UHGV virus genome: UHGV-0211239
From: a virus
DNA length: 41,840 nt
Reading direction: 5' to 3' (one strand)
The translations under genes were made by a program, and so were the position numbers. The notes under the pieces are model-generated. The model was not told the DNA's origin, did no database searches, and worked only from the letters and a program-made list of their open reading frames with translations. Within the stretch, counting starts at the first letter, position 1, and each line of letters begins with the position of its first letter. Of the stretch, positions 5,202 to 41,840 are shown piece after piece.

Positions 5202-5210
5202 GATTCCCCC

Positions 5211-5906: not shown

Positions 5907-5908
5907 GG

Positions 5909-6367
5909 CTATCTCCCGTGATTCAGGAAGTCGATTAGTTCTTCGCGTGTGGCGCTGTAAAACGTCACGTCATCCACGCCTTTGAAGTATTTCTTGATGG
6001 TTCCTACACGCTTAAGGCCAATCATTGCGCAGTACATCTGCCCGTGGCGGAATTTGCGTGCGGCGAACGATGTGACGCACTGAACGGTGGTGTTAGTCAG
6101 AATGTATCGCCAGAACGCCAGACCGATTTCCTTGCTGAATCCACGAACCTCTGGCAGGTACATGGCGTGGCAATCGAATGTAAGCGGCTGAATCTCCTGA
6201 TAGTAAACAATGCCGCCGAACTGCCCGTGCACGTTCACCTCGAAGTAACGGCATTCAGGCTTGTAGTCGTATCCATCACCGTTGTTGCTCCCGGCGATAA
6301 TGTCGGGGTGATTTCCCACGGCTTCTATCAGGTCGATGTTTCGCGTTGGTTTGAACTGAATCATCAC
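5909..6367 (-). CDS. Head-completion/DNA-stabilisation protein, P22 gp14-like
   Basis: 152 aa ORF between tail needle and gp7; assigned by synteny. Confidence 0.65.
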
Positions 6368-7317
6368 TGCTCCGCGATTATCTTGATGGTTGTGGCAGTA
6401 AACGCCGCACCATTCGACTGAATGGTTAACGTACTGCCATTTGTGGCAAGAAATCCGTCTTTATCCACGCTGAAGAATGTAGCTAACAGGATGTTGTCGG
6501 TTGTTGTCGCCGCATTACGACTGCTGACCAGCGTATCAGGAACAGAGCCGGAAAAAGTTAGCTGCATTGACCTGTTGGCGGTTCCGCTGGGCCACGTCCC
6601 GACGATCGACAGCTTGAAGAACAAGGTTTTGTTCTCGTTGAACACAACCATCTTGTTGTTAACGGTGTCGAAGAATGGTGCCAACGTGCCGGATGACGGC
6701 GTGAGCGTTTTCAGCAGGCTAACAAGGTTGGTAGGCGCTGTCGGAATTGTTACCGATACCCCTGAGTAAACAACCTCTGATTTCTTGCGCGTGGTGGCAT
6801 ACTCAAGCGCAGATATTCTTGTTGAGTGATCACCAACTGTGCTTTGTAGCGTCGAAATACTTCCCTCTGCCGCTGTGAGCCTGGTATCAAGTGCGTCGAT
6901 ATCGGTTGTATTCTGAGTTATGCGCGCATCATGGTTTGCTAACTCAGATTCATTGGCAGCAATTCGCGTCTCGTGATCAGCCAGCTCTGTTTCAGCAGCC
7001 GTAATCCTTGTTTCATGATCTGCAAGAGTGCTTTCCGCTGCTGCAATTCTATGTTCATGATTGATGAGAGTTGCTTCAGCAGCTTCAATTCTGGATTCAT
7101 GGTCTGCAAGGGTGACATCCTGCTCATCGTTCCTGACCTGTGCATCATAAGCGCCCTGTCCGGCCTCGTTGGCTTTGTTAGCCACGTTACCAACATCAGT
7201 GCCCTGTGCGATAACGTAAAGCAGATACGACTGCGAGAAGATATTGCGTGGAAGGACTGATGTGTCGAGCCGTGTGGCCTGAATGATTACCGGAACATTG
7301 AGATTCGAATCCGCCAT
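6364..7317 (-). CDS. Tail needle (P22 gp26-like) with extended coiled coil and C-terminal knob domain
   Basis: 317 aa; N-terminus [43 protein letters not shown] matches gp26 N-terminal domain; heptad repeats (ADHETRI motif several times); about 130-aa C-terminal extension. Confidence 0.8.
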
Positions 7318-8735
7318 TACTCAATCCTTATCTGAGCGCCAGACAGAGTGACAGGTGACTTCGTGATAACGCGCAATTTGAAACCAATGTTTTTCCTGAT
7401 GCGCCCTACTTTCTTCCACAAAACGCGTTTGTCGTAAACGAACGGTTCATTCTGCTCAATCATCTGCTCACGACCGTAATTTATGCCGTCAGTGGTTGCA
7501 GAGAGAAAAAGGCGGTCAGCGTACTGAGCAACACCCGTCGATGATTCCACCTCCAGATCAAAGCATCTGGCGTTATCTGCTTTGAAGAGTGGAGTAAACA
7601 GCAGGTGTTCCTGCTGCTTGTCATACTGGCTGCTGATATCGAACTGCAATTTCCCGGTCACGGATTCCAGCTTATCGCCGCACGTTATCTGATTGCCTTC
7701 GTAAATGAAGTCGATAGCACGGTACACATCGTCATACAAGCCAGTTTTCAACACACACCATTGCGGACCATTGGCGCTTGAAGATGCGTCGTACACGAGA
7801 ACATGGCGCGGAAGGTGGATAATCAGCAACTCATGAGCATCAAATCGCAGCGATTCCATCACACCATCAGCCAGTTCATCAGCAGTGTAGGAGCGGAGGA
7901 TTTTCTCAATGCTCGCGCTGGCGATTGGTGACACCTGACCGGAGCCGATGATGTATACAGACGGCGCACCTGTTGCCGGATTGCTGATGAACGCATACGA
8001 GTCAGCGAATGGCGTTTTGCAGTAAGTCCCGGCGATGCCTTTTTGCACCATCAGTGATGGCTGTGCGACATACAAAGCTGCACCAACGGTGGTTGCACCA
8101 GTCAGGGAGAAATATTCAATCGTCGATGAACCAAAGCAGACGATGAAGTCTCGCCATGTGCCGATGCCGATGATGCCGTCCGGCTGCGATTCTGCGCGAT
8201 ATTGTGCGCTGTAGCGGTCAGGATGCGATTCGTCTTCAAGATCAGTGATAAACCATGAATCAGTTCCGTCTTTTGACCACGCATAACGCCCACGTAAGCG
8301 CGTAATATCGCGGACTGAGCCTAACTCATACTGAGTGAATCCGCTGTCTGTAGGCCAGTTTGAGACGGTTTTAACCGTGCCATCATAGCGATACTCGACC
8401 AGTTGACCATTAACGCCTACCGCCTGTGATGTCCTACCATGCGCCATTGATACGCGACCACTTCCGGAGACGTCACCGACTTCGCTTTCGCCTTTGTAAA
8501 GCTTCCCACCACACACGCGATAAACAGCACTCTGCGCCATGTTGTACTCGACGCCGCGAGATACACCGTTCACATCAGAGCGTTTGGCAATGCCAGGGAA
8601 TGAGCGAAGATATCCCGATGAATTCAACACCTCCTTGGGCGTAGCTAAAAGATTGACTGGAAGTTGGTCTATATAATCAGCATTAACCGCACTTTTCCCT
8701 AATCCCTTCATTAGTGGTAGTTGTTGTATTGCCAT
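7317..8735 (-). CDS. Tail accessory/head-completion protein, P22 gp10-like
   Basis: Start set to ATG at 8735 ([14 protein letters not shown]...); the track start at 8744 is TTG; stop overlaps gp26 start (TAATG). Confidence 0.85.
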
Positions 8736-9267
8736 TGGAATCAACCTTTATATGAACCCAGTTAGCATCACGCTTTAGCCTACTTGCCCAAGTCTTAGAT
8801 ATCCCGTACTTAGCCGCAATTACTGACAAGCTTTCTTTTGATGACTTGATTGCAAGAACATCGTCATCACTCAACTTGTGTTTTGGGTGCTTGGTTCCGA
8901 AAAACTTGATTGGTTTCTTTAATCCTGTGGCGTATGCATGTTTGATGTTTTCGCTTTGAGTGCACCACTCAAGATTATTGACGTTATTATTGAGTGGATT
9001 GCCATCAATATGATTTACCTGAGGCTTGTTTTCAGGATTTGGCAGGAATGTCATTGCAACGATTCGATGGGCAAAAGTCCATTTTGCTCCGATATTATAA
9101 AGCACCCTTCCCTGATTTATTTTAGGCTTTAACCAGCGCCCCTTTCTGAGTTGCGTGCTGCCATGCGCAGCCTTAACAACACGTGAGTGAGAATACACCC
9201 TGCCATCTTCTGTTACGGCATAAACACCTTCAAATCCAGGTATATCTTTAGCATTCTCAGAAAGCAT
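8683..9267 (-). CDS. HNH homing endonuclease (NUMOD4 - HNH - C-terminal HTH)
   Basis: 194 aa; GFEGVYAVTEDGRVYS (NUMOD4-like), HIDGNPLNNNVNNLEW...N (HNH), C-terminal DDDVLAIKSS..LSVIAAKYGISKTWASRLKR (HTH); SD aaggag; 3' end overlaps gp10 start in another frame. Confidence 0.8.
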   Translation of the reverse strand: MLSENAKDIPGFEGVYAVTEDGRVYSHSRVVKAAHGSTQLRKGRWLKPKINQGRVLYNIGAKWTFAHRIVAMTFLPNPENKPQVNHIDGNPLNNNVNNLEWCTQSENIKHAYATGLKKPIKFFGTKHPKHKLSDDDVLAIKSSKESLSVIAAKYGISKTWASRLKRDANWVHIKVDSNGNTTTTTNEGIREKCG

Positions 9268-9303
9268 ATCTACTCCTTAAAGTTTCGATTTTTCATGTAC
9301 TTA

Positions 9304-9408
9304 TTATATCAAAATTGCCAGCATATTCACTGGCAGATAGTCGATATAGTCAGCGTTTCGAAAGTCTTTGCCGACACCTTTCATAAGCGGAAGTTGCTGA
9401 ATCGGCAT
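9304..9408 (-). pseudogene. Duplicated 5' fragment of gene 10 (34 codons then stop)
   Basis: Translates [34 protein letters not shown], paralogous to the intact gp10 N-terminus; ATG abuts the gp4 stop as expected for the native gene 4-10 junction. Confidence 0.7.
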
Positions 9409-9909
9409 TTATTCGCTCCCGTTATCGCAAGGTTCCTTTCGGTGGAAGTAATTCCAACCGTTCCACTTCGCCAACTGATTACCGCTACCAACAGGCATAC
9501 GGTTTGGATAACCGGACTTACATTTAGCGGCTTTTGCTCTGTCCATTGCAGACAGTTTGACGAGTCGCTCTTTCCCGTATCTGGCAGTGGTTATAAGTTT
9601 TGCAGACGCTTCCAGCGCATAATCTGGAGCAATGCGGCAGGCAAGGTTGAAAATGACGGCATTGATAGCGTTATTTGACAAACCGTGCTCATCGCCAGGA
9701 TCCGGAGCGACATCTGCATCAGCGAAAATGTAGCCAACGTTGATACCAGGTGACGCATCACCGCCAAGCCATTCAGCCATCATCATTTCAAGGTCGTTGA
9801 CGCCGTCTTCCATAGACTGCGGTTCGACATCGGTTAACGTGGCATTTGATGCAACACCGAGCTTACGTAATGCTGCAAGGACTAAATCACCCTTCGTTGT
9901 CAGGTTCAT
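9409..9909 (-). CDS. Tail accessory/head-completion protein, P22 gp4-like
   Basis: Start re-set to internal ATG ([33 protein letters not shown]...) giving about 166 aa as in P22 gp4. Confidence 0.8.
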
Positions 9910-10129
9910 CTGCTGCCGCCTTAGGTTTTCGACCAGGCTTTTTACGCTGTTTTTCTTCTGGCTCTGGCTCTGGCTCTGACTCTGCAACATCCTTCAGAAG
10001 GTCATCGGGATGTGCAAACCAGCCAGCATCCAGATATTCCTGAAGCTCTTCGGCTTTCACGATTTCAAAGTCGTATCCAACGCCTTTCCACTTCTTCATG
10101 TCTCCATGACGAAAGATCATGTGTGTCAT
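9887..10129 (-). CDS. Small acidic hypothetical protein between coat and gene 4
   Basis: About 80 aa from ATG at 10129 ([14 protein letters not shown]...), SD ggaga; C-terminus has (EP)n encoded by a hexanucleotide repeat; overlaps gp4 start. Confidence 0.4.
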
Positions 10130-10144
10130 GCTTGTCTCCAGATA

Positions 10145-10166
10145 AAAAAGGGAGCCGAAGCTCCCT
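10145..10166 (-). terminator. Intrinsic terminator/attenuator after coat gene
   Basis: Minus-strand RNA gggagc-uucg-gcuccc followed by UUUUUU, directly after the coat stop. Confidence 0.6.
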
Positions 10167-10173
10167 CTGGTTA

Positions 10174-11469
10174 TCACGCGGTCTGGTTAGGCAGACCAAC
10201 ACCAATTGCCTCTGGTCGTACAGCACATGCTGAATACCACACAGCAATACGGCACTTACCAGACAGAGTATTGATATCACCCTGCGTTGCGAAGATGCCG
10301 TTAACACCAATACCAGGAATGCTGAAGGAAGACGTTTTCATGCCAGCAAACAGTTCATGGGTTACCGGGATCGGCTGAGACAGCAGACGGATTGAGTCAT
10401 CAGCCCAGAACACGTTAGCGGTGGTTGTTGCCACGTTCAGAACGTTTACCGTAGTGGCATCAGCAAGAGAGGTGTTTACGTTAGCGTAAGCCTTCTCTTC
10501 TTTTGTCAGTGACGCGTCATCCAGTGCAATCGGTTTCGGCGTGATTTCGATGTGAGTACCATCGATCACACGGGTGATTGAGAAAGTCGCATCATCAGTC
10601 AGCACGTTCTTCGCCATCTGAGACAGGAATTTCACACCAGTGAAGCTGATTTTGTCGCCGCGCTTAAATCCGGTGGTGGAGGATACGGTCACCGTTGCAA
10701 CACGGTTGTCGACGTTCTCTTTGTTACCATCGGTATCAAGGGTGTATGCCTGCGGCTTAAACTTCTGCGCACCAGAAACAGTTACACCAGTAGCGGTTGA
10801 CTTGGTAACTGCAGGAAGTTTCGGTGAGCGAAGAATTTCATCAAAGCCAGCAATCTGACGCTGAATAGTACCGTTGCGATAAGCTTCTTCAGGAACGCGC
10901 CCAAAGATGTCACCATCTACCAGGTTGCGGCCTGCTTTGCGGTAATCGTCAGGGTTCAGGAAGTAACTGATGCCCATGTCGCGGTTGAGTTCGCGGGAGA
11001 ACATCAGGCGCTCTGCATCAGACACAAAATCCCAGCCAGACAGGCCAGTAGATGGACCAATTGCGCGGGTATCGTGAACAACAAGCGAGCCCATTTCAGT
11101 TGCCTGTTTGGCAATCGCTGACTCAATGTTATTCGCCAGTTTTTTGGCGGATGCCTGGATGCGGCGACGGTAAGAACGCTCATCACGCAGGTCATCTGCA
11201 CGAAGCTCGAAGAAATCGTTATCCGGATCGCCCATGTTGCATTTCACGGACAGTTCCAGAATACCGGTAGCGTTGCCAGTTAAATCCCAGCCAGTCTGAG
11301 TTGGCGCTTCCTGCTCAACAGGCATCCACACGGTGTTGCTTGAACGTTGCATGGATTCTGCCGGAGGGGTGTATTTTGTCACTTTGGACGCCATTGGCGT
11401 CAGGTTCTGGACGGTTTCGATGATTTCATCCAGAGCATACGTGACCAGTTGACCTTCATTTAATGCCAT
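10174..11469 (-). CDS. Major capsid (coat) protein, P22 gp5-like
   Basis: 431 aa; collinear high similarity to P22 coat as recalled (MALNEGQ.VT...[14 protein letters not shown]...NRDMG.SYF.NP.DY.KAG...LSG.CRIA.WY...[13 protein letters not shown]). Confidence 0.95.
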
Positions 11470-12380
11470 TATCGAATTCCTTTATTCAGTTGCGCCTTGA
11501 GCTTGCGGTATGTCTCTACATCCCCTTTGTTTGCTGCCGCTTCCATCTGCTTTTCAATCGCAGATATATTTGCAGCAACAGCGTGTCCCTGAATGGGTTC
11601 ATCAGGTAGCGGGGCTTCTGAAACAGGTTTGGCTCGAGGCTTGAGAGTTAAACGTTCTGACAGTCGAGTGAGTTCAATCAGCGCGGATTGCCCGTCCATC
11701 GCCAGCAACTGGCGTGTTTTCTCAGGATTAGCACCAAGGTGATACATGAGAGCGGCGGATTTCTCCGGGAAGAGGCGCATGATGTCGGCACCGACTGCTG
11801 GCGGCACCAGTTGCATGAATGCATCCTCTTTCTCCTGATAGTCAGGGATATTGAGCTTTTCCGCTGCGTCGTAGTGCTTACGGGCTGCCTCGACGTATTG
11901 CGCTGATTGCTGGGTGAACTCCTGAGTTTTGCGCCCCTGCTCGGCGACAGCCTGGCTTCGTGCGTCCATAGCCTTGATCTGCCATTCACTGTTTGCCTGC
12001 TGGAAGGCAGCCAGTGCGCGGCTCTGGTCATAGTCGTACTTAGCCAGTGCATCTTCGGAAAGATAATCGTTAGGGTCTGGTTGTTTTGGTAACTCAGGGT
12101 TCACCCGCAGGTGCTCCGGCAACTCTCCACGCTTAACCGCCTCCATCTGCTGCTCAAGCTCACGCTGGCGTTTGCGTTCGATGCGGCGACGGGCAAATTC
12201 AGCATTAGTTGCCGGGTCTTGTTTTGGTTTCTCATCGTCTTTCAGGACAATCTCGAAGCCTTCTTCCTGACCTGCGTTGTCGTTGGCATTATCGACAACT
12301 AAGCCATCAGCAGATGCCGCTGCATGATTGCCGGGCAGGGTTAATTCTTCAGAAGCCTGAATGTCGGTGGTTTGGTCCAT
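11469..12380 (-). CDS. Scaffolding protein, P22 gp8-like
   Basis: 303 aa (same as P22 gp8); charged, helix-rich composition; between portal and coat. Confidence 0.85.
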
Positions 12381-12393
12381 GATTAACTCTCTC

Positions 12394-14559
12394 TTATTGA
12401 GGTGTCTCGGCTACTCCGCCGGAGGGGATTTGAACTTGACGCATAAGATTCGCGAAATCCATGCGTTGTGAATGAGTCTGGTCTGCATCTTTAAGAAGCA
12501 GCTCAGCGTTAGCACGAGCATCTTTGCTGCGCTGTTGCTGGAATTGACCTACGAGCTTGAGGTACTCACGCAGTTCTGCCTGCTTGTCGAGGTCCATATT
12601 GTTGAAGATTTCTGCAATCTTCGCGGCGTTGAGTTGGTTTTGGGCTTCAACCTTGGCGGCTTCAACCTGAATCTGCGCCTGTTGGTTCTCTGCCTTGAGC
12701 AATTCAGCCTGACCTTGCAGAAGGATACCCTGAGCCTGAATTTGCTCTGCTGATGGCTGCTGCGGCTGTTGTTGTGCCTGCTGTACCATCTCCATCTCTT
12801 CAGGTGTTTCTGGTTTCTTCAGCCCCATCATCACCAGTTGCTTGTTCGCGTACTCTCGCATCATCTCGACGCCTTTACCGTCAAGCAGCGTGAAGTATTG
12901 CAGCATCAGCATCTGGAACTCTGGAGTACCTTGCGGAACCTTGGTGAGTAACTCCTGAATCTCTGCGCGGTTCTGTTCCTTCATGCTCTGGAAGGATGGC
13001 CCAACGTCCGTATAGCACTCATAGCGACCGCGAATGTCGTTGAGTGTGACCACATTGCCGGACTGGTAATCTACAACTTGCGCATAGAGTTGAACGTCTT
13101 TCTCGCTTCCATCTTCAAGTGTCAGCGTTACATGACGAGGAACGTCATAAATATCGTTGACCATTGAGGCATAAATCTCGCCATCACGTCGCATTGCGGT
13201 AGCAAGGTTATCCTGAAACACGTATGTCTCAAGGTCTGCCCGCATGTTCAGTTGATTGACGGTATCGAAAGCGACCTGACCATTTGCCGCCTGCGCATCC
13301 ACGCCAAGACTAGCCACCTCTTTCACTGCGTTGGTGGCTGCCTCAAGCATGTAAGCGTTGGCTTGCGGCACTTCAGGGTTTTCCATGTAGGAGATTGGAC
13401 CAATCGGCAGGTCGTTGCCGTTTTCATCGGTCTTGTTCTGCAAATAGTACGGATAGTCATCATTTCCACCGTACATGTATTCGTAGCCTTCGATTTGCTC
13501 AGGGAAGAAGGTCGGTTTCTTCTTCGGTGAACGAGCAACAATATCGGCGTTGAATGACATGATCATGTTACGAAGGCGTTGACCGTCTTTCGTCAGCCTT
13601 ACCACTCCTTCGTAGCACTCCTTGTCACCAGCGAATGACCATTCGCCATACACTGGAACGATTGGAATATGCTCTCCGGCTATCTTCTCGCGGTCTTTCA
13701 GTATCTGCGTGCAGGTGATGATCGACTTATACACACGCCGACGCTTGACCTTACGCTCTGCTACCTTAATGAATCCACGATTAGCCAGGTCATCGATGAC
13801 GTCTTTGATATCCTGCTGGTAATAGCTGACCGGCTCACCTGTCAGCGGGTCGCGGTAGATGAAGACTTTCTCCTTCTTCTCTTCTACCTCGTAATACTCA
13901 GCGACGTAGACGACATCATTCGACACCCAAGGAAACAGCCATGTGTCGTTCGGATTCTGGAAAGATGGCAAGGTGTCCGGATCAATACCGTAATCCTCTG
14001 CGAACTCTTTCCAGCCATTGCGTGACAAGGCGTTAATCACCGTGCAGTGCTTAGCGTCGCTCTTATCCATCTGCTTGCTGTTGGCGTCCCATATGACGTG
14101 TGAGCAGGCTTCATGGATTGGCAGGCGTCGGATTACCTGATTGTTGCTTGTTGGGTCGTTGTCTTCGTACTGGGTGACCAGACGCCATGCACCAACGCCG
14201 GACTCTATCTGCTCACGAACGCCAACGTTAACGGCAATCTTTGCCGTGTTATGGCGCATATCAGTACGATACATTCCCATCAACACATCGGCAGCATCAG
14301 GATTAGCGCCGTCTTTGGGTCGGAAGAGAACGTCGATAGGGTTCCGTCGCATCTCTGCTACCAGTTTCCTGACCACCGGGCGAACAACATCGAATTGTCC
14401 GCGATATTGCAGGGTAGTGTAGTTTGATAGCCAGTCATCCCATTGCGACACTCGGCTAAAATACAGGTCATTTGTCGCCTCGGTTCTGGCTTCATCGCTC
14501 GCCATCCAGTCCGCGTCAAACTTACACAGAATGGAATTGAGTCTGTTTTCGTCGGCCAT
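12394..14559 (-). CDS. Portal protein, P22 gp1-like
   Basis: 721 aa; N-terminus [23 protein letters not shown] and long Gln-rich C-terminal helical barrel typical of P22 portal. Confidence 0.9.
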
Positions 14560-16059
14560 TTAAGTTCTCCGTGCGATGGGCCTGATTGGGGCTGGTATCT
14601 TTTTCTCTTTTGGTTTTTTGATGTCGCGCATCATTTTGGCGAAGCGGCGCATCATGTATGCATAGCGAACGGCTGAGAGAACGTCGTCGTTAAGCTTGAC
14701 GATTTTCCCGTTTTCATCACGGTGATAGAGGCGGAACTCCTCAAAGAATGGCTCACAGGTGTTGAATACTTTGAAGCGACCATCGAGCATCATGTCGCGC
14801 AATTCAGTGATGCCAGGCTCCACAGCATTACCGCCATCAGGCCATGTCGCATGCTCCTGCAACATCATAAAACCAGCATCTGCATACTGCCCTTTGAGCT
14901 GCTCACCGCCGCCCTTCTCGTGCTGGTTTCCGTCATGAGGCCATGCGGTTGGCACTTTATGCGCCCATGATTTAACAGCTCCCCATGCCTGAACGGCTGT
15001 TTTTTCTTTCGCCTTCCACACGCGTGAAACGTAGATTGTGTCTGCGTCCTTATCCCACCAAAGCTGAACCTGCGCCTGTGGGTGATCCCATCCGAAATCC
15101 ATCCCGCCAATTACGTAGAAGTGATCAGGACACTCGAACGGCTGACACTTAATCGTCTCTTCCGGTATCTGGAAGATTCGACCACTACCCATCGTAGGAA
15201 TACCGCGAGCACGCGCCTCTCTCTCATGCTCGGGATAGGATGCGATGATTTGCTCTTTCTGCTCGTCTGTGTAGTGCTCAGCGTCGTAGATGGTCATGTT
15301 GACCACTTTCTGTGACTTGCTGGGATTCTTCAGGAACTTGGTAACAACGTCAGACATCCCCATCAGCGGGGTAAACGTCAGAATTGAGAATTGCCCGTAT
15401 TTGTTGGTACGGGTAAGACCTTCGCCATAAATGCTGTATGGTGGCTCTTCGTCAAACCACACGCCGTGGATTGTGTCACCCTGCCAGCGAGCACGGCCTT
15501 GCGAGTATGGTTTGAAGTAGCAGATTGAAATGCCATCTTCAACGCCATCAGCCGTGTGATGCTTAACCAGAAGATGATCAACAAGGTTCGGAAAGAAAGG
15601 AGACTTCTTCCAGCTAATGATGTCTTCTTTCGGTATGGAACCGTAGCCAGGCTCATCATTCTCTTCGATACGACCGCACAGGATACGTTGAGTCGTTTTG
15701 GTTACAGTCTCGTTTGTCTCGCCGCCAATCCAGAAGACAACAGGCTCATAGAAACGCTTACCTTTCCACTCCCCGCCATATTTACCATCAGCCGGATAGC
15801 CTTTTGTGCCCGGATAACGCCCGGTAAGGTGAAACGCGACTTCAGCAGCACCAGTAAATGACTTACCAAGCTGGTTACCAGCCATAAAACATCGCTCTGG
15901 ATAGTCATGTCCGGCGTCGATGAACTCACGCTGTTTGCTGTATGGCGTAAATTCATATAGCAAGTGTGTGTTCCGGTAGTTCTCTTCTTCTTCGAGTAGC
16001 TCGAGCAACTCGATTTGCTCTTCGTCGCTCAGGTTATCAAGAATCGCGTCCAGTTCCAC
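14560..16059 (-). CDS. Terminase large subunit, P22 gp2-like
   Basis: 499 aa (same as P22 gp2); ATPase and nuclease regions; directly upstream of portal. Confidence 0.9.
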
Positions 16060-16531
16060 GGTTGAATAGCTCCTTGATACGAGAACGTCGCTTATCGCGA
16101 TCTCCCTTATCAGGTGTCACGTCTTCAACTTGCGACTGCTCTTTGAGGCCCAAATCACGGGCGATGATGTTAGCGTTGAGAAGGTCAGCGGCTGCGCCAG
16201 AGAATTTCTGGTCGTAGATGATGTCTTCCGCTCGTGATGTGACGTCAGAAAAACCTTCCATTGACCGGAAGGTTCCCCATGTTTGCCTGGTGATATCAAG
16301 GAAGGTACACAATCCTGAAATCGTCATGGCTCGCATCTTAGGGACATTAGCCTTAATTATTTCTCCCTGATATGAAAATACCTTACCCTCCCATAGCGGG
16401 TTATCATCAGCCCACTCGAAGTATTCACAACAAGCAGCCCACAGCGCCTCAGGCGATTCGAATTTAGGATTTCGCCCATGACTACTGCGGGCCTCCCAAA
16501 ATCGGTTGCCCTTTGGTGCTGCCATATTCAT
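16037..16531 (-). CDS. Terminase small subunit, P22 gp3-like
   Basis: 164 aa; [46 protein letters not shown] matches P22 gp3 N-terminus; overlaps terL start. Confidence 0.9.
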
Positions 16532-18355: not shown

Positions 18356-18598
18356 GTCTTACCCCCAATAAGGGGATTTGCTCTATTTAATTAGGAATAA
18401 GGTCGATTACTGATAGAACAAATCCAGGCTACTGTGTTTAGTAATCAGATTTGTTCGTGACCGATATGCACGGGCAAAACGGCATGAGGTTGTTAGCGCA
18501 ACCTCCTGCCACCCGCTTTCACGAAGGTCATGTGTAGAAGGCCGCAGCGTAACTATCACTGATGAATTCAGGATAGCCAGTGGCTACGGCTCAGTTAT

Positions 18599-18673
18599 GG
18601 TGCTGGTTAACGGACTTGAACCGCTACACATTCGCTTACAAGGCGACTGCTCTACCATTGGAGCTAAACCAGC
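18599..18673 (-). tRNA. tRNA-Thr-like (anticodon UGU)
   Basis: Manual cloverleaf on minus strand: 7/7 acceptor stem, 4-bp D stem, anticodon loop CUUGUAA, T stem with loop UUCAAGU, discriminator A then CC; one non-WC pair at 27-43 and C at position 14. Confidence 0.55.
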
Positions 18674-18678
18674 ATATT

Positions 18679-18753
18679 TGGCGGGACAGCGTGGACTCGA
18701 ACCACGATAAGAAGGTTAACAGCCTTCCGTAATGACCTTTATACGACTGACCC
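18679..18753 (-). tRNA. tRNA-Asn-like (anticodon GUU), possibly degenerate
   Basis: Manual cloverleaf: anticodon stem 5/5 with loop CUGUUAA, T arm CGUGG-UUCGAGU-CCACG, encoded CCA; acceptor stem has one U-U mismatch, D stem 3 bp. Confidence 0.45.
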
Positions 18754-23031: not shown

Positions 23032-24483
23032 TCAGAATCCTCCTTTCTTCTTGGACTGCGGTTCCTCACGTTCACGGCGGCGCATTTCAGCAGACTGTTG
23101 GTCTGTGTCATAAATAGCGCCATTTGCCTGTATGCAATACACCGTGCCGGTATTGCCATGACGATTGAGGCGAAGGATTAGTTCGGTTTCACCAGGAGGA
23201 ACGCTGTCATCAAAAGCACCTTCCCGATGGATCCCAACCCAATAATCGCAATCCTGTTCAATCTGCCCTGTATCTCGCGAGTCACTTGGTAATGGGCGTT
23301 TATTGGTTCGGCTTTCCAATGCGCGGTTAAGCTGCGTCAGAAGCACAACAACGCAATCAAGCTCTTTGGCAAGGTTCTTCAGTCCTTTGGTGATCATGCC
23401 GTAAGCAAGGTCGTTGCGATCGGCCTTTTCAGCGGTCATTAGTGTCAGGTAATCGACCAGAATCATGCCAACACATCCTTTTTCTCGCTTGATTAGACGG
23501 CTTTCGCTGACGATTTGAGCCAGAGATAATCCCGGCGTGTCGTCGATGTAAAGCATGTCGATTTCACTCAAGCGATTGGCTGTTTCGATCGCCCTGTTGA
23601 AGTCACCATCGTAATCACCCTGATAGCCGTCATCAGCGTCATTTGTCGCCGGAAGGTAAAAAATATTCGGGTTAACACCTGACTTCTGTCCTACCAGTTT
23701 TTCCAGTATCTGGTCACCGGGCATTTCAAGGCTGAACATCAGAGCGGGCTTTTTCTCATGCACTGCGCAGTTGATTGCCATCTGGCTGTATAGCGTCGTT
23801 TTCCCCATCTTAGGGCGAGCGCCAATGACAAACAGAGAGCCTTTCACCAGACCTTTCGGTGACAGCATCCTGTCCAGCGATGGGATCCCTGTGCTCATTC
23901 CTCGTTGTTCGCCTGACGGGTCAAATCGCTTCTCAAGGTCGCTAACCCAGTCTTCCATGACCTCACCAAATGAGCGAAGGCCGCGACGCGATCCGGTTTT
24001 TGCATGGTCTGTCAGTTGCGTGAAAATCGCCTGAATAGCTTCGTACTTCTGCGTTGCAGTCATTCCGTTGCGGGAATAGAGCAATTCCGTCGCTTCAGTC
24101 ATACGGTTGATGGCGTAGCGTTCCATTGCGGTTTCGCGAACCTGCATTGCATAGGCAACGATGTTTGCGGCGCTCGGCGTGTTCTTTGCGATCTCAGCGA
24201 TATAAGCAAAACCGCCAACAGACGCCGTTAACGATTTACGCTCCAGTTCATCGAAAAGCGTCAGGCCATCTACTGGCTTTTGCTCCCGGTGCATTCTGGT
24301 TATTTCTTCGAAAAGGATTTTGTGTGGTCGGCTGTAAAATGAATCAGGCTTCAGCATCGCCAGAACTTTCCGGACGCGCTCACTGCTGTCATCATCCAGA
24401 AGCAATCCACCAATAACCGCCTGCTCTGCCTCGATGCTATGGGGCGGCGCATAAAAATTATCGGTCATCGTGTTCACCCTCAC
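23032..24483 (-). CDS. Replicative DNA helicase (DnaB-like; P22 gene 12 analogue)
   Basis: 483 aa; Walker A GARPKMGKTT; DnaB-like N-terminal region. Confidence 0.9.
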   Translation of the reverse strand: MRVNTMTDNFYAPPHSIEAEQAVIGGLLLDDDSSERVRKVLAMLKPDSFYSRPHKILFEEITRMHREQKPVDGLTLFDELERKSLTASVGGFAYIAEIAKNTPSAANIVAYAMQVRETAMERYAINRMTEATELLYSRNGMTATQKYEAIQAIFTQLTDHAKTGSRRGLRSFGEVMEDWVSDLEKRFDPSGEQRGMSTGIPSLDRMLSPKGLVKGSLFVIGARPKMGKTTLYSQMAINCAVHEKKPALMFSLEMPGDQILEKLVGQKSGVNPNIFYLPATNDADDGYQGDYDGDFNRAIETANRLSEIDMLYIDDTPGLSLAQIVSESRLIKREKGCVGMILVDYLTLMTAEKADRNDLAYGMITKGLKNLAKELDCVVVLLTQLNRALESRTNKRPLPSDSRDTGQIEQDCDYWVGIHREGAFDDSVPPGETELILRLNRHGNTGTVYCIQANGAIYDTDQQSAEMRRREREEPQSKKKGGF

Positions 24484-27067: not shown

Positions 27068-27625
27068 TTGGCAAAAATAGATGATTATCAGCCAAGCCAA
27101 GTAGAAGTTGATAAAGTACTTTATTGTAAAAAAATAGTTAACTTTTCTGGCGTTAAATGGAAACAGAAACCAAGTCGCTCTGATATGTGGCTACAAACTC
27201 ATATCATCCCCTTGGATGAGGATTGTATACCTATACAAGGGCTAAAGTTTGAACTGAAATGGAAACCAGATCAGGATTCAGAACCTGATGACCCGATTTC
27301 TTACCCTAAAATAAATATTATTGCTTTCTATCATAACAAGAGGGTTTTCGCGGTAGATACCTATCACTTTGACAAACACACGAATAGTTACAAGGTCGAT
27401 CATCCGAAGTACCAAGATATCATTTACGGTGCTCACTACCATGTATACTATGAAGAAGCTGGATACTATAGTGATAGAATAGCGTTTCCAATCGAAGATG
27501 ACATAAACCCAGATGACCTGGTAGGGTATTGGAATTACTTCTGTAAACATCTGAACATAACTTACTCTGGGAGAATACCTTTACCACTTGAAGATGAGTC
27601 GGGGCAAATGGGGTTTGGAATATGA
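27068..27625 (+). CDS. Hypothetical protein A of candidate two-gene system at rexAB position
   Basis: 185 aa, TTG start with SD agggcgg; AT-rich codon usage; His/Tyr-rich segment HYHVYYEEAGYY; no recognised domain. Confidence 0.55.
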   Translation: MAKIDDYQPSQVEVDKVLYCKKIVNFSGVKWKQKPSRSDMWLQTHIIPLDEDCIPIQGLKFELKWKPDQDSEPDDPISYPKINIIAFYHNKRVFAVDTYHFDKHTNSYKVDHPKYQDIIYGAHYHVYYEEAGYYSDRIAFPIEDDINPDDLVGYWNYFCKHLNITYSGRIPLPLEDESGQMGFGI

Positions 27626-28374
27626 TGTGCTCAACAGTGATCTCACAACTAGGTTTCGAATGCCATCCAATAGGCAAGACCTTGAGAATTATCAGTCCAT
27701 TCACTTACTGTGATGATGGAGAGCATGTCGGTGCCTTTATCCGTGAAGTCAATGGTAGGTATTTAGTTAGTGATAGATGCGATGCCTTAATGAATATGGA
27801 GGCAAGAGGGATCTCGCTTACCAAAAAACGACTTGATGAGATACGACAATTACTGCTTAAAGAAGGCGCAGAGCTCAATGATCGAGGAGAAATCATTGCT
27901 TGGGCAACAGAAAAGGATGTCGGTGCGATTACATCGAACATAATTAGAGCTGGTATACTCGCATCAACTTTGTCGTTAGACTGGTATCAGCCAGTTCAAG
28001 CTGAAAAGTTTGAAAGTATGGTTATTGATTATCTATATCACACAGAGCTTAGAGACGCACTTTCTCTTCGTGAAAACGTATATGGCTTGAGTGGACATCA
28101 AATTACCGTCCCTGTAACAATAAAAACCGACATACCTAAATACGTTTTTACATCAAGCGTGAAACACGGAGGAAGCTGGAATAGTGCTTACTCATTGCTT
28201 GGGAAACTAATTGATCTTAAAGCATCAAGTGAGGAGTATAACAACAGATTTGTTGTTATAGACAGCGAAGCAATTGGTGACCAAATGCAACAACTCTCCT
28301 TACTCTTCCATGAATCAAGCCAAGTTCTACCATTCTCCAAAAGAGAGACTTGGGTTAAGAGACTTGCAGCATAA
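27622..28374 (+). CDS. Hypothetical protein B of candidate two-gene system
   Basis: 250 aa; ATG overlaps stop of gene A (ATGA); AT-rich; followed by a terminator; no recognised domain. Confidence 0.6.
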   Translation: MMCSTVISQLGFECHPIGKTLRIISPFTYCDDGEHVGAFIREVNGRYLVSDRCDALMNMEARGISLTKKRLDEIRQLLLKEGAELNDRGEIIAWATEKDVGAITSNIIRAGILASTLSLDWYQPVQAEKFESMVIDYLYHTELRDALSLRENVYGLSGHQITVPVTIKTDIPKYVFTSSVKHGGSWNSAYSLLGKLIDLKASSEEYNNRFVVIDSEAIGDQMQQLSLLFHESSQVLPFSKRETWVKRLAA

Positions 28375-35476: not shown

Positions 35477-35824
35477 GTGGAAGAAGAAATCTTCACTCGT
35501 GAAGAAGCTGCGTCGTATCTGAAGGTAGACAAAGGCACTATCACGCAGTGGATACGAAGTGGACGACTTCAGGCCGCAAAGATAAATCCAGATAAACCTA
35601 AAAGCCCATATCGCATTTGCAAGTCAGACTGCATTGCGGCGCTTAAGTCTGTGAGACACAATAGCGCGGTGAATGCGGTTGATGTGCAGGAGGTTAAAGC
35701 ATGTCAATCAAACTACGCGGTGGCACGTGGCACTGCGATTTCGTCGCGCCAGATGGATCAAGAGTTAGACGCTCTCTTGAAACATCGGACAAAAGGCAAG
35801 CGCAAGAACTTCACGATCGTCTGA
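35477..35824 (+). CDS. xis: Excisionase (MerR-like HTH)
   Basis: TREEAASYLKVDKGTITQWIRSGRL HTH near N-terminus; immediately upstream of and overlapping int. Confidence 0.65.
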   Translation: MEEEIFTREEAASYLKVDKGTITQWIRSGRLQAAKINPDKPKSPYRICKSDCIAALKSVRHNSAVNAVDVQEVKACQSNYAVARGTAISSRQMDQELDALLKHRTKGKRKNFTIV

Positions 35825-36861
35825 AAGCAGAAGCGTGGAGAGTAAAAAATCTCGGGGAATCGCCGAAAAAGCTATTCAAGGAAGCCTGCATACGGTGGCT
35901 GCGTGAGAAATCGGATAAGAAGTCCATTGATGATGACAAGAGCATTATATCGTTCTGGATGTTGCACTTCAGAGAAACCATTCTCTCTGACATAACAGCA
36001 GAAAAAATAATGGAGGCGGTAGACGGGATGGAAAACCGCCGCCATCGCCTGAACTGGGAGATGAGCCGGGACAGGTGTTTGCGGCTTGGCAAGCCAGTGC
36101 CGGAGTATAAACCAAAGCTGGCAAGCAAAGGAACGAAGACGAGGCATCTGGCAATACTTCGCGCCATTCTCAATATGGCTGTTGAATGGGGATGGATTGA
36201 CAGGGCGCCAAAAATATCAACACCACGCGTTAAGAATGGACGCATTAGATGGCTTACAGAAGAAGAATCAAAGCGCCTGTTTGCAGAAATAGCTCCTCAT
36301 TTCTTCCCTGTTGTCATGTTTGCAATCACGACAGGCCTTCGCCGCTCCAACGTTACAGACCTTGAGTGGTCACAGGTCGATCTGGATAAGAAAATGGCAT
36401 GGATGCACCCTGATGAAACAAAAGCTGGCAATGCGATCGGAGTTCCTCTTAACGAAACCGCATGCCAGATATTAAGAAAACAGCAGGGTCTCCATAAGAG
36501 ATGGGTATTTGTCCACACCAAACCTGCCTACCGAAGCGACGGAACAAAAACAGCAGCGGTAAGGAAGATGAGAACCGACAGCAACAAGGCATGGAAGGGA
36601 GCGTTAAAGCGGGCAGGCATTAGCAACTTCCGATTCCATGACTTGAGGCATACTTGGGCAAGCTGGCTGGTTCAGTCCGGTGTCTCTCTTCTTGCACTTA
36701 AAGAGATGGGAGGATGGGAAACTCTCGAAATGGTTCAAAGATACGCTCACCTTTCAGCCGGGCATCTCACCGAGCACGCGAGCAAAATCGATGCGATTAT
36801 AAGTCGCAATGGCACAAATACGGCACAAGAGGAGAACGTGGTTTACTTAAATGTGAGGTAA
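35701..36861 (+). CDS. int: Tyrosine integrase (P22 Int-like)
   Basis: 386 aa; catalytic-domain motifs (HDLRHTWASWLVQSGV, MGGWETLEMVQRYAHL); attP adjacent. Confidence 0.9.
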   Translation: MSIKLRGGTWHCDFVAPDGSRVRRSLETSDKRQAQELHDRLKAEAWRVKNLGESPKKLFKEACIRWLREKSDKKSIDDDKSIISFWMLHFRETILSDITAEKIMEAVDGMENRRHRLNWEMSRDRCLRLGKPVPEYKPKLASKGTKTRHLAILRAILNMAVEWGWIDRAPKISTPRVKNGRIRWLTEEESKRLFAEIAPHFFPVVMFAITTGLRRSNVTDLEWSQVDLDKKMAWMHPDETKAGNAIGVPLNETACQILRKQQGLHKRWVFVHTKPAYRSDGTKTAAVRKMRTDSNKAWKGALKRAGISNFRFHDLRHTWASWLVQSGVSLLALKEMGGWETLEMVQRYAHLSAGHLTEHASKIDAIISRNGTNTAQEENVVYLNVR

Positions 36862-36876
36862 CTTATTGATTTAAAT

Positions 36877-36921
36877 GGTGCCGATAAGAGGAGTCGAACC
36901 TCCGACCTTCGCATTACGAAT
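36877..36921. other. attP core: 3' half of a tRNA-Thr gene (thrW-type)
   Basis: Reverse complement reads AUUCGUAAUGCGAAGGUCGGAGGUUCGACUCCUCUUAUCGGCACCA (anticodon loop, T arm, acceptor, CCA); 16 bp after int stop. Confidence 0.7.
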
Positions 36922-37250
36922 CTGTAGAACCAATCATAACTATCTGTTTTAGCAAGCATTAACCGCATTCACCAAGCAATAGTTGATGGCACAAACAGAA
37001 AGTTGATGCATGATGTTGTCATGTGTATGTCACAAATACGGCACAACGATCTTCAAACATGTAGCCACCCAGCATAGAAGAGCACAAAGCCTTGCAATCC
37101 AGTGCAAAGCTTTGTGTACCTTAGTTTTGTCTCATAGGTAATTCTGCTTTAACTGCGATGCAGGAATCTGTCACCAGACGCACGTCTCGTTGTCTTATGG
37201 TTTTCCGTTCATGATTAATATGTTAGCTTGTCAAAGTTTGTGTTTAAGAT

Positions 37251-37922
37251 ATGGTGATTGATGCAATGTTAAGCGTTCAGATGACTCCACAAGCAAAAGT
37301 TAGCTTCGAGGAGCAATGTTTTTTTCATGCTTCAGGTCTTGTTGTTGCCCCAATAAATGTTGGAGCATTCTCCTACTTTGGCGCTAATTGTATGCTCGGC
37401 GGCTTTACGATGGGTAGATTTTGTTCAGTTGCTCCAGGAGTAAAAATTGGCCTTGGCGAGCATGAAACTGGGTATTTTTCTACGCATCCTTTTTTCTTTG
37501 GCTCAAAAAATGGTTTTAAAATCCCTGATGGTATAGGAATGCAACGCGACCTCTCTCAACAGAAGCATGGTATACCAAGAATTGGTCATGACGTATGGAT
37601 AGGTGCAAATGCGGTTATCAGGCGAGGTATAACTATTGGTACTGGCGCTGTTATTGCTGCTGGCGCTATTGTCACCAAAAATGTCGAGCCATATTCAATC
37701 GTAGGTGGCGTTTCTGCAAAACACCTAGGGTACAGATTTGAGGAATCAATCATCAAAGAGTTACTGGATAGCCAATGGTGGGAATATGATTTAAGCTCAT
37801 TTATTGGGATTGATACAAGGACACCGACGACTTTTTTAGAGCAGTTTAATGCTGTAAAAGATAAAAAGAAGGCATCTTATAAGAGATTTACAATTCTTCC
37901 ATCCGGTGAAATTGTTGAATAG
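37251..37922 (+). CDS. Hexapeptide-repeat (left-handed beta-helix) acetyltransferase; candidate surface-polysaccharide O-acetylase
   Basis: 223 aa; repeats [31 protein letters not shown]; AT-rich; convergent with tailspike at the P22 seroconversion locus. Confidence 0.75.
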
Positions 37923-37941: not shown

Positions 37942-40308
37942 TTAAATAAACATAAGAATAAACATCAGAAGTTCCTCGTATCTGATACCATACTGATAAC
38001 CAGCAGGTTTAATAATAACCTGCCTTCCTGTGTAATATTCCTCGTCGTACCACTCTCCTGTTTCATTGTTTTTAACACTCCTAATTAATACCTCTGGAGC
38101 ATAAATATCATCCCATTCATCATAACACCAGAACGCATAGTTATTAGGGTCAAGACCGTATTTTCTGAGAATATTACCTACAGTTTGTGCACCAACACCG
38201 AAATGAATCCGAGCGCCATCACTCTTGATCTTTACTGCATCTTTAAATTTAAACCTCCAGATATTTTTCTTTATTTCAAGCGCAGCAAGACGCTCTGATT
38301 CTGTTGTTTTCTCGTCAGCCTCAATACGCAATTTCAGCTCTTCATTCGACGTGTTGATACTGCCAGTACCAGCGTATACCTGTGACCATCGAAATGCTGA
38401 TGTTCCGTTTGAGTTAACATTATCAACAGTTGGTTTTATAAGGCCAGAAAAATGAGTTTCAGGTGATGTATGAAGAAGATATCCGCCAGAATCGTTTTTT
38501 GTGCGTAATTCTATAGAGTCTACAATTATTCCACTGCGACGAATAATGATAGCGTTATTACCTTGTGCACCATTGTCTTTCTGAGTGGATAGTGTGTATC
38601 CGGTACGAGTATCTATCCTCCATCTTTTGGTATCTTCTGATGCTTCCTGATTATAAAGATAAATAGAGTTATCAGTGTAATTATTTTTGCCATCAATATT
38701 TGTAAGTGTAAATTTGTTATTTACTTTGTCATCATTGACCATGAAATTGGCAAGAGTGTAGAGAGGAGATGCAGTATACTGGCTGCAATTAAAACCACGT
38801 GCGTTTTGTATGTTAAGTAATGTTGTGACATTAGCATTAATGCTAATATTGGAAAAGTTTGTCGCCTGATTTGCTCCATGTATTGATGATGTTACTCCTA
38901 TCTGAGCTCCAATATCCAATGTACCAAAACTTACATTAATGAAGTTGTTTGCATCGCCACCATCTATAATTATTCCTTTTTTAGTCGTCGTATAACCTGA
39001 TGCACTGCTAATCTCCAATCCATTAATGGTGCACACTCTTGGTCTGATGAGTCTAATTCCTACCCATTCATTTCCGTGGTCATATCCTCCTCCTGCTCTA
39101 TGTATGGCTAGTCCATTAGCAATCAAAAGAAATCTGTTATCAAGATTAATAGGGTGAAGCTGGCTATTAATGATAACGTTTGTCCATATAGACTCACCAT
39201 ACGCATAGCGATTTGATTCGAACACTCTATCCTGAGCATCATAAACACCGTTTAGGGATCTAGCAACATCGACATTGGTAAGATTGAAATATGTCTTCTG
39301 CTTAATTTCAAAAAAATTGGCAACGTTATGCGTTGTGATATCACTCACACGCATGGATAAAATACCTTCTTCTGGAGCGGTGCGAATGAATCCATCAAGG
39401 AACTGTTCATTATAACTTTTGGCTATCTGATAACATCCAACAGCATCAATGCGTTCGATTGTGAACTGCCAACTATCACCACAGTTAAAAGACCATTCCC
39501 AACCGTACTTCTGTGCGAATTCATCAGAATCAATATTTGCAGTCTCAGAACAGAAAGATAAAAATCTAAATGTTGGTTTTGGCCTTAGATGATTAAGCCC
39601 GACACCTCTTGGGGTATATATGGCATTAGCTCCATTCCCGCCTTTGCTTTTAATTGTAAGGTGACTTAAACCAAATTCAACATCATGCTTAGTTGGTGCA
39701 GCGAAAACAAATCCATCTTTTGGTGATGTGGTATTATCAAACACAATAACTGTTTTACCCTGTCCATCGCCACACATATTCACTGGTGGTATATTAACTG
39801 GTCCAATTAAATTATATGTTCCAGTTGGAATATATAACTTTCCACCATCTCCAAGAGCATTTGCTGCTGCAATAAATGCCACCGTATCATCGTTAACACC
39901 GTCACCTTTCGCCCCATAATGCTGTGGCGTAATTAACAGCATACGGTCAGAAAAAATCTCTTCCCTAAGTTGATCAGGATCGTATTTTAATACATTTGGA
40001 AAATAAAACTGCTGAGTGCCATATGCATCATATACAGCCATAGAATGGCCTTGCACAGTTACGAATTTGGCAATCTGCCCGTTATATACCGGATATCCAG
40101 CAGCGTTAATGATGATTGGTTGCGAAACAGGAACATGAGAGCCGTCTTCGTTCTCTACATAAACCTGAATCTGGTTTTCAGGATTTACCGGGTCAGTATC
40201 AATTTTACCGATATAAATTTTGCCATTGGCTACGGATTTAAAAGAACGCGCCATAGTGAAGAGTTGCGAAGGCATACTCACTACAACATTGGCTGTAATG
40301 TCTGTCAT
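37942..40308 (-). CDS. Tailspike: P22-type head-binding N-domain, pectate-lyase-like beta-helix, C-terminal intramolecular chaperone (S74-like)
   Basis: 788 aa; N-terminal about 110 aa matches P22 gp9 ([11 protein letters not shown]...VLKYDPDQ); [13 protein letters not shown] motif; C-terminal SNEELK...[10 protein letters not shown] resembles self-cleaving chaperone domains. Confidence 0.8.
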
Positions 40309-40486: not shown

Positions 40487-41365
40487 TCAGTAGTTATGTA
40501 CTGAAGGAGGTAATTCTTTATTCTTAAGTCTCATCCATGCGGAAAGATTCGTTGGTCCGTCTGGCTCATTAATATCAACATCTCGTGTATGGTTGATTAA
40601 AACATCTCTCGCCATTCCGATAACATACGAGAACTCATGACCGTAGTCGTAGCATCTGCCGGAATAATTCGATTGAATTTGTTTTAATGCCGGATACAGT
40701 TCGCGGAATAATGCCTGTGAGCGGTTGGCATAATCCCATAACCATACAAGACTGTTTGCTTCTTTTGCAGAAAGCTCGTTGGTTTTCTTCTCTTGCTTGC
40801 CGATGAACTCACCTTCAAGCACTACCCTGTGGATGTACTCTACGGCCAGCGGGATTTGTTCAATTGAAAGTTCATCAATGCTGTCAATACCAAAACGCTG
40901 ATGAACCATATTGTATGCATCGTCATAGCGAAGTCCTTTCTTTCCTACCAGCATGTTTACTGCATCGCGTAGCGGTGTTCTTTCCTCAACAGTGGTTTTC
41001 TTTCCTTTTACATACTCGTCATGTTTGCGAATTGAAGGCAGAACTTCTGCTGTTACCCACTTGCGGAATTTGTGCGGGACTGAACCTTTATTGACTGCAT
41101 CGCGGCAGCGCAGAACCAATGTATACATACCTGATTCGCTCACAATGCTTATATTCTGCTCACCACCAAGGGTGTAACTTAAAGTTACTCCCTTTTCATC
41201 GTCATCAAGTGCAGTAAGCGCCTTGCGTGAGTTAGTCAAAGCTAAAGCATCACAAACATCTTTAGCTACAAACCACGGCTCGCCGCACTTGTTAATGACG
41301 CGAATTTCACTGTCGCCAAATTTGAAGATGGTGAAATCGTTTTGTGCCTTTGCTATACTTTTCAT
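40487..41365 (-). CDS. ant: Antirepressor (Bro-N domain)
   Basis: 292 aa; N-terminal [30 protein letters not shown] is Bro-N-like; downstream of arc. Confidence 0.7.
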
Positions 41366-41427
41366 GTCAATATTTCCTAATCCGATTTGTTGATACCGAA
41401 GCCCTGACTGTTACCGCAGTTGGGGCT

Positions 41428-41652
41428 TCAACTTTTCACTTCTTTAAAGTGCCTACCTTCTACAGTTGCTCTGAGATAAAAATTCTTATCTTTACCGTTT
41501 AGTGCTTCCCAAGCATCAACAATGCACTTATTACAGATGTGGACTTCTCGATAACCAATAGCTTTCCTGTCAATATTAGTGAACATAACAGTTTCTTTAT
41601 CTGTCAATGTGGATGCATGACAGAAGTCGCAATCTATATAAGATACCTTCAT
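41428..41652 (-). CDS. Small CxxC...CxxC zinc-ribbon protein between arc and ant
   Basis: 74 aa; Cys at 8, 11, 40, 43; ATG overlaps arc stop; SD gagaggggat. Confidence 0.5.
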   Translation of the reverse strand: MKVSYIDCDFCHASTLTDKETVMFTNIDRKAIGYREVHICNKCIVDAWEALNGKDKNFYLRATVEGRHFKEVKS

Positions 41653-41807
41653 ACCGTTATCCCCTCTCTCTTCAGGCTGTCCATCACTCGCTTGTAAATC
41701 TCAGAGTTAACAGATCGCCCGTTCTCTTCCGCCACCTTACGCACCAAATCCAATACTTCTTTAGGCCACCGCAAATTGAACTGCGGCATTTTGCTCATTC
41801 CTTTCAT
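41649..41807 (-). CDS. arc: Arc repressor (ribbon-helix-helix)
   Basis: Start re-set to ATG at 41807 (MKGMSKMPQFNLRWPKEVLDLVRKVAEENGRSVNSEIY...) matching P22 Arc (53 aa); SD gaggtg. Confidence 0.9.
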   Translation of the reverse strand: MKGMSKMPQFNLRWPKEVLDLVRKVAEENGRSVNSEIYKRVMDSLKREGITV

Positions 41808-41821
41808 ATTCACCTCACAAT

Positions 41822-41840
41822 ATAGGTCCACCGTGGACCT
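41822..41840. promoter_or_regulatory. Mnt operator (Omnt) palindrome, truncated by the window boundary
   Basis: taggtccaccgtggacct; with base 1 (a) it completes a 19-bp palindrome taggtccaccgtggaccta. Confidence 0.75.

Follow-up and report, generated by a model that had tools for sequence, protein, structure and literature searches.

The 41,840-bp virus genome UHGV-0211239 (the window, meaning the whole stretch of DNA analysed here at its full length) raises the question of what its two ends are. The record is linear, 41,840 bases long, and runs as the reverse complement of the P22 reference, with arc at its 3′ end and mnt at its 5′ end. The questions are whether positions 41840 and 1 are neighbours in a circular phage genome, and whether the operator of Mnt was split where the circle was opened. 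The opening point corresponds to P22 coordinate 38302/38303 (AF217253), within the immI control region. We are highly confident that the window represents the complete circle of a temperate podophage of E. coli, P22-like (Lederbergvirus-type) and in the excised, non-integrated state.

The genes of immI and those around mnt and arc were located as follows.

58..306, plus strand: mnt, 82 aa, N-terminal sequence ARDDPHFNFRMP identical to that of P22 Mnt, ORF start MARDDPHFNFRMP (PDB, Pfam, tblastn).
349..1704, plus strand: three ORFs 3′ of mnt and in the same direction (199, 139 and 109 aa), replacing P22 ORF59/sieA (ORFs, PHROG, Pfam).
40487..41365, minus strand: ant, antirepressor with Bro-N and P22_AR_C domains (tblastn, PHROG, Pfam).
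41367..41433, plus strand: sar antisense RNA, complementary to the region just 5′ of ant including its ribosome-binding site (Rfam RF00262).
41428..41652, minus strand: 74-aa CxxC...CxxC ORF between arc and sar/ant, absent from P22 (ORF).
41649..41807, minus strand: arc, 52 aa, N-terminal sequence MKGMSKMPQFNLRWP identical to that of P22 Arc (PDB, Pfam, tblastn).

The Arc protein, a ribbon-helix-helix protein, matched PDB 1ARQ (E 3.8e-26) and the Pfam Arc family (E 1.7e-27) and was 90% identical to P22 Arc. Its residues 1-15 were identical to those of P22, and the N-terminal beta-strand PQFNLRW was present. Mnt matched PDB 1MNT (E 1.2e-40), was 84% identical to P22 Mnt, and had the N-terminus RDDPHFNFRMP. 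It combined a Pfam Arc (RHH) domain with the C-terminal tetramerisation domain Repressor_Mnt (PF11423, E 5.5e-15). The sar match scored 72.7 bits against a gathering score of 43 and ended beside the ant start codon. Ant matched phrog_245 ‘anti-repressor Ant’ (E 5e-111). Its C-terminal 184 aa were 81% identical to P22 Ant, and its N-terminal part was mosaic and, unlike the rest, unrelated to that of P22.

With the two ends joined, arc and mnt were separated by 33 + 57 = 90 bp, exactly the distance found in P22 (X01916). This intergenic region aligned to that of P22 without gaps, with 88 of the 90 positions identical. In X01916 (locus L001; arc 685..846, mnt 937..1188) window position 1 is position 880. 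Only two differences from P22 were found in the 90 bp. The first, at window 41823, is operator position 2, which is T here and C in P22. The second, at window 45, lies in the mnt ribosome-binding site, which reads GGGG here and GGAG in P22. The sequence-only reading had taken arc at the 3′ end and mnt at the 5′ end to be divergent neighbours as in P22 immI, and both the ORF matches and the intergenic identity bore this out. The last bases of the window read ...CACAATATAGGTCCACCGTGGACCT and the first bases ATTGAGAATATAGTAGAGTGCTTCTATCATGTCAATAC..., and the divergent pair of mnt and arc-ant with its short shared promoter region can be seen only after joining the ends. The control elements of the joined region were the following.

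41822..41840, no strand: first 19 of the 21 bp of the Mnt operator Omnt, palindrome ATAGGTCCAC-C-GTGGACCTAT (palindrome search, P22 alignment).
1..2, no strand: last 2 bp of Omnt (AT), cut off by the linearisation (palindrome search, P22 alignment, Logan contig).
2..30, plus strand: promoter Pmnt, -35 TTGAGA at 2..7, -10 TATCAT at 25..30, spacer 17 (consensus scan and X01916).
7..35, minus strand: promoter Pant, -35 TTGACA at 35..30, -10 TATATT at 12..7, spacer 17 (consensus scan and X01916).
10..30, no strand: Arc operator Oarc, ATAGTAGAGTGCTTCTATCAT, 21 bp, identical to P22.

Across the junction, ATAGGTCCAC-C-GTGGACCTAT formed a 21-bp palindrome with ten-base arms and one central base, the longest perfect palindrome in the circularised sequence. 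Because operator position 2 is T, the perfect symmetry extends over 21 bp here, as against 17 bp in P22. The 17-bp P22 Mnt operator core AGGTCCACCGTGGACCT was found at 41824..41840, wholly before the break, and so were both GTGGACC half-sites of Omnt. GTGGACC is the highest-affinity Mnt half-site consensus (PMC2726951). The 17-bp and 21-bp definitions of the operator were taken from P22 records and general background, and the half-site from PMC2726951. The claim that the linearisation splits the Mnt operator therefore holds for the 21-bp palindrome, which crosses the junction, but only its outermost 2 bp are cut off and the core is intact. Likewise, the palindrome had been described as the last 19 bases plus base 1; the part from 41822 to 41840 stands, but the symmetry needs both bases 1 and 2. 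At 10-30, where an Arc operator had been proposed, the exact P22 21-mer was present. A literal literature search for the operator sequence gave no match.

The promoters were identified with a consensus promoter scan. Since window position 1 is position 880 of X01916, the hexamers are the -35 and -10 elements of the arc-ant and mnt promoters annotated in that record. Pmnt and Pant overlap face to face, and the predicted start of Pant lies approximately at the 41840/1 junction. Given these positions, Oarc falls between the two hexamers of Pant and takes in the spacer and -10 element of Pmnt. Omnt spans the predicted Pant start and borders the -35 element of Pmnt, and the break is close to the Pant start. 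Pant is predicted to transcribe arc, the 74-aa ORF (orf74) and ant across the break. With arc, mnt, the operators, the promoters, sar and ant all found, every part of immI is thus present. P22 immI (X01916; AF217253 37994..39468) has the same divergent mnt/arc-ant arrangement, Omnt core, Oarc, promoters and sar.

The additional ORFs of the region were less readily assigned. The ATG of the 74-aa ORF overlaps the arc stop codon (ATGA). This ORF had no PHROG match and only a sub-threshold match to a ClpX zinc finger, and its counterparts in E. coli prophages and NZ_LT599830 (‘phage_14408_1’) are labelled hypothetical. On the mnt side, the 199-aa ORF belonged to phrog_18235, which has no assigned function in PHROG, and the 109-aa ORF to phrog_5962. 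The 139-aa ORF, which overlaps the 199-aa ORF by 16 nt, matched Pfam YafO_toxin (E 1.1e-11). PADLOC, run on the 74-aa ORF and the ORFs on the mnt side, returned insignificant matches only. It is possible that the three ORFs 3′ of mnt make up a toxin or defence moron that the prophage expresses from Pmnt. The ‘ant moron’ of P22-like phages, as presented in the available text of Villafane et al. 2008 (PMC2629481), is similarly a variable, independently expressed set lying between gene 16 and the tailspike gene, and comprises mnt/arc/sar/ant and genes of unassigned function. In contrast, a complete P22-type immI together with a YafO-like ORF and an extra ORF between arc and ant is not among the combinations described in that text. 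We consider it improbable that the 74-aa zinc-ribbon-like ORF, translationally coupled to arc, and the YafO-like ORF, co-transcribed with mnt, endow the antirepressor switch with a new regulatory or defence layer, which could for example be a prophage-expressed toxin module under Mnt/Arc control, or, as a separate matter, that the position of the cut is physical.

That positions 41840 and 1 are contiguous had also been claimed from the letters, and was confirmed by the gapless alignment to P22 immI, by IMG/VR contigs and by a Logan contig of 100% identity. This contig, SRR9161516_104 (13,088 bp), was the sole contig returned by a look-up of the window's tailspike protein. It corresponds to window 33789 to 41840 and on through 1 to 5036, with 100.000% identity, 0 mismatches and 0 gaps. 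As it is gapless and identical across the break, no base is missing or duplicated there. Look-ups with the portal, helicase, gp3 and DUF1828 proteins, aimed at tiling the remainder of the circle with SRR9161516 contigs, gave unrelated long contigs only, these proteins being too common or their ORF start differing from that of the called gene. Closure of the circle rests on assemblies, and the Logan contig may share a sequencing run with the window, in which case it would be an independent assembly and not independent data. The exact 46-mer of the junction was present inside 43 IMG/VR contigs; it was not found in a one-genome-per-species collection. Single BLAST HSPs spanned the junction in 46 fetched loci, the best reaching 99.7% identity over 2,431 bp (L031); that in L014 covered 3,896 bp at 98.6%. 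In E. coli prophages the junction region was matched by one HSP, for example in H37 (96%, query positions 110-887, junction at 600/601), and matches to it were found in 730 of 5,426 E. coli genomes.

The position of the break is itself unexpected, as an arbitrary break would fall inside a given 21-bp site with a chance of about 0.05%. Neither window end coincided with an ORF start, and no terminal overlap, no loss of bases and no terminal direct repeat of at least 8 bases were found in the window. A gene start, a terminal overlap and an effect of the palindrome on the assembler were each considered as the cause of the break, and were contradicted by the ORFs, the ends and the Logan contig, respectively. 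The break was most likely an arbitrary choice by the assembler or depositor, without biological meaning, and its coincidence with the operator a matter of chance.

If the palindrome had caused an assembly artefact at the break, bases could have been lost, duplicated or inverted and the genome would be nearly, though not exactly, complete. The low odds of a random cut within the genome's longest perfect palindrome speak for such an artefact. It is nevertheless very unlikely: the joined intergenic region has exactly the 90 bp of P22, the ends do not overlap, and an independently assembled 13-kb contig crosses the break without mismatch or gap. Moreover, the 10-bp arms are far below usual assembly k-mers, and the unpaired centre means that the palindrome is not a self-complementary even-length word. 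Being short and having an unpaired central base, it should not trouble an assembler.

The gene content agreed with a complete genome opened at this point. A tblastn search with all 64 annotated P22 proteins recovered the P22 circular order in reverse orientation: genes 3, 2, 1, 8, 5, 4, 10, 26, 14, 7, 20 and 16, and also in P22 order mnt, arc, ant, the N-terminal part of gene 9, int and xis. The order 3-2-1-8-5-4-10-26-14-7-20-16-(morons)-mnt-arc-ant-9-attP-int-xis is shared with the whole P22 genome, as are integration at thrW next to proA and a headful-type terminase. The same search placed gene 23, genes 13 and 15, several nin genes and a gene 12-like helicase, and all P22 virion, packaging and lysis genes were present. 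PHROG scans added a CI-like repressor, an N-like antiterminator, O-like and DnaB-like replication proteins, RecT, an endolysin, a tail needle and gp4. The length is 41,840 bp, compared with 41,724 bp in P22. Taken with closure from 41840 to 1, this gene content in P22 order upheld the claim of a complete phage genome. Unlike in P22, the early-left, immC and replication genes were mostly non-homologous lambdoid alleles, a hexapeptide O-acetyltransferase stood in place of gtrABC, the body of the tailspike differed, the central part of gene 3 including pac was replaced, and an HNH gene and two tRNA genes were extra.

The CI-like repressor gene was directly followed, at the place where lambda has rexAB, by two ORFs of 185 aa (phrog_2017) and 250 aa (DUF1828) at 27068..28374 (plus strand). 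The trio of CI-like repressor, phrog_2017 and DUF1828 recurred in several otherwise different lambdoid prophages (L063-L067).

The integration genes and site were found inside the window.

35477..36861, plus strand: xis (35477..35824) and int (35701..36861) (tblastn, Pfam).
36870..36921, no strand: attP common core (matches to prophage ends); 36876..36921 is the reverse complement of the 3′ 46 nt of thrW.

The int product and P22 Int shared 54% identity. In hundreds of E. coli prophages the match to the int region stopped at window 36921, beside tRNA-Thr followed by proA and proB. In the lysogen TUM9803, window 36401..36921 was found at one prophage end (the int side) and 36870..37700 at the other (the acetyltransferase side), about 39.4 kb apart. 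The two arms overlapped only in 36870..36921, and this overlap is thus the attP core. Both attP arms in the window were phage DNA, with the core intact and internal, and the Logan contig SRR9161516_104 ran continuously through attP. ARAGORN found no complete thrW (tRNA-Thr, CGT) in the window, where the only tRNA genes detected were tRNA-Thr(TGT) and tRNA-Asn(GTT) at 18.6 kb, and no host genes were found in the window. The sequence-only reading was therefore right that attP is internal and that there is no host flank, the core at 36870..36921 having phage DNA on both sides and a complete thrW being absent.

The thrW site of TUM9803 (L050) held two tandem elements, another integrase-bearing one lying beside the P22-like prophage (6796..9222, 11608..11773). 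The TUM9803 P22-like prophage was without any immI or ant moron, its tailspike gene directly adjoining gene 16.

The same observations bear on the possibility that the window is a prophage, or a piece cut from a chromosome, with ends that are not contiguous and perhaps touched host DNA. P22-like prophages are certainly very common in E. coli, at the frequency of junction-region matches given above. However, integration would leave attL and attR at the two ends, as with the TUM9803 arms 39.4 kb apart, and attP is intact and internal here. Both window ends are instead phage immI sequence that abuts just as in P22 and in the Logan contig. With host genes and a complete thrW lacking as well, we regard this origin as extremely unlikely.

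The late genes, the packaging region and the tailspike gene occupied the following positions.

1705..16531, minus strand: late-gene block 16, 20, 7, 14, 26, 10, (HNH), 4, 5, 8, 1, 2, 3 (tblastn, PHROG).
16236..16257, minus strand: pac-homologous 22-mer GAAGGTTTTTCTGACGTCACAT in gene 3, 15 of 22 positions identical to P22 pac.
37942..40308, minus strand: tailspike at the gene 9 position, 788 aa (tblastn, PHROG).

The terminase proteins were homologues of P22 gp3 and gp2 (82% and 93% identity; Pfam GP3_package). A terminase of the P22 gp3/gp2 type packages DNA by the headful mechanism from pac in gene 3. In P22 the 22-bp pac lies in gene 3 at 23479..23500; this 22-mer was absent from the window at up to 5 substitutions. 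Both ends of gene 3 of the window (16037..16531, minus strand) were nearly identical to those of P22, but some 190 nt in the middle of the gene, among them the pac-homologous 22-mer, were replaced. This central allele swap suggests that the packaging specificity may have been swapped. Headful packaging is predicted, from the terminase homology, to start at 16236..16257, far from the window ends. If it does start in gene 3, the virion ends are unrelated to those of the window. The term ‘circularly permuted’ describes how the record was opened; permutation and terminal redundancy of the virion DNA are predicted from the terminase type.

It is similarly hard to see the window ends as the physical ends of the virion DNA, whether cos sites or direct terminal repeats. 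The only hint of this is the improbable position of the break, near the predicted Pant start. Against it are the gp3/gp2 homologues of the headful pac type, the absence of a terminal repeat, and the fact that the regulatory region at the ends is internal in all relatives, and we give it next to no credence.

Several other features were recorded in these parts of the genome. An HNH endonuclease ORF (8683..9267, minus strand; phrog_59, E 4e-53) was located between genes 4 and 10, overlapping the start of gene 10. Relatives had their HNH genes elsewhere in the late operon: L053 in the gap between genes 10 and 26, L061 between scaffold and coat genes. The tRNA genes Thr(TGT) and Asn(GTT) (18598..18753, minus strand) lay between the homologue of gene 23 (Q-type antiterminator) and the holin gene, and NZ_LT599830 had them too. 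The tailspike combined a P22-type head-binding N-terminus with a different receptor-binding body of pectate-lyase type. Next to it was a hexapeptide (CatB-related) O-acetyltransferase gene (37251..37922, plus strand). Many matches to E. coli prophages started at about 37075-37083, and the acetyltransferase and tailspike genes are suggested to form a shared cassette with its own boundary.

In phage, plasmid and E. coli collections, no record covered 80% or more of either half of the window, and an exact 52-mer of the tailspike gene was absent from IMG/VR. The genome is a new mosaic of an E. coli P22-like phage. The E. coli P22-like phages and prophages (APC_JM3.2, IME10, CUS-3 and NZ_LT599830) shared the virion module at 96% identity, with some 70% of the window's first half covered; CUS-3 matched on the mnt side only. 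NZ_LT599830 shared a block of int, attP, acetyltransferase and tailspike at 99.8% identity, and its arc and mnt are contiguous, as in the joined window. Its Arc was almost identical, whereas its Mnt-like protein was different (L003 26381..26473; N-terminus VARNDPQFNVRM). At the position of Omnt it reads GATAGTAC-C-GTACTACTAT, and the left half of its Oarc is altered. Judged by these sequences, NZ_LT599830 seems to carry an immI whose specificity differs. Several P22-like genomes of roughly 39-41 kb have been deposited with E. coli assemblies, either under plasmids or under ‘chromosome phage’ as records of their own (NZ_CP081778, NZ_CP063485, NZ_LT599830). Each of these was opened at a different arbitrary point, in NZ_LT599830 inside the terminase gene.

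The length of the palindrome alone is not significant: of 100 first-order Markov resamples of the genome, 10 had arms of at least 10 bases somewhere. What carries the weight is that it is identical to P22 and lies between arc and mnt. Those resamples are the argument for regarding the palindrome and the Oarc match as accidental resemblances that do not act as operators. This is extremely improbable: 17 of 17 and 21 of 21 operator positions are those of P22, and the spacing to arc, mnt and both promoters is unchanged; each site is unique in the window, where 0.05 (Omnt core) and 0.00 (Oarc) matches are expected by chance at up to 3 mismatches; the DNA-reading residues of Arc and Mnt equal those of P22; and the relative with the different Mnt-like protein differs at exactly these positions.

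Rejoining the ends restores the immI switch of P22. The repression logic set out here is carried over from P22 biochemistry. The P22 work drawn on, which PMC2629481 cites, is that of Sauer et al. 1983, Vershon et al. 1985 and Youderian et al. 1982. Under this model the leftward arc-orf74-ant genes would be read from Pant, and mnt rightward from Pmnt. In the lysogen, Mnt made from Pmnt would bind Omnt as a tetramer and shut Pant, so that the antirepressor would be off and Pmnt freed. After infection Pant would fire, and Arc would build up, bind Oarc and shut both Pant and Pmnt. The sar RNA would pair with the ant leader and limit translation of ant. Since the operators and the DNA-reading N-terminal residues are identical to those of P22, the same specificity is supported, and binding of Mnt and Arc at these sites, with repression of Pant and Pmnt by them, is probable.

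For annotation, the point of opening has practical effects. Read as linear, the record has an arc-ant operon without a promoter and an Omnt at its edge without the outer 2 bp. Pant, Oarc and Pmnt, at the window start, are parted from arc-ant and the Omnt core at the window end. The Mnt/Arc switch is then missed as a unit, and the genome could pass for a fragment. The remedy is to rotate the record, for example to start at gene 3 or just past the tailspike gene, as P22 references do. The observation is real and already known, and is useful for annotation without being a biological novelty. The Mnt and Arc operators and the residues that read them have been kept nearly base for base between a Salmonella phage and a mosaic E. 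coli phage. Such conservation of immI despite heavy mosaicism is as expected for the P22-like family.
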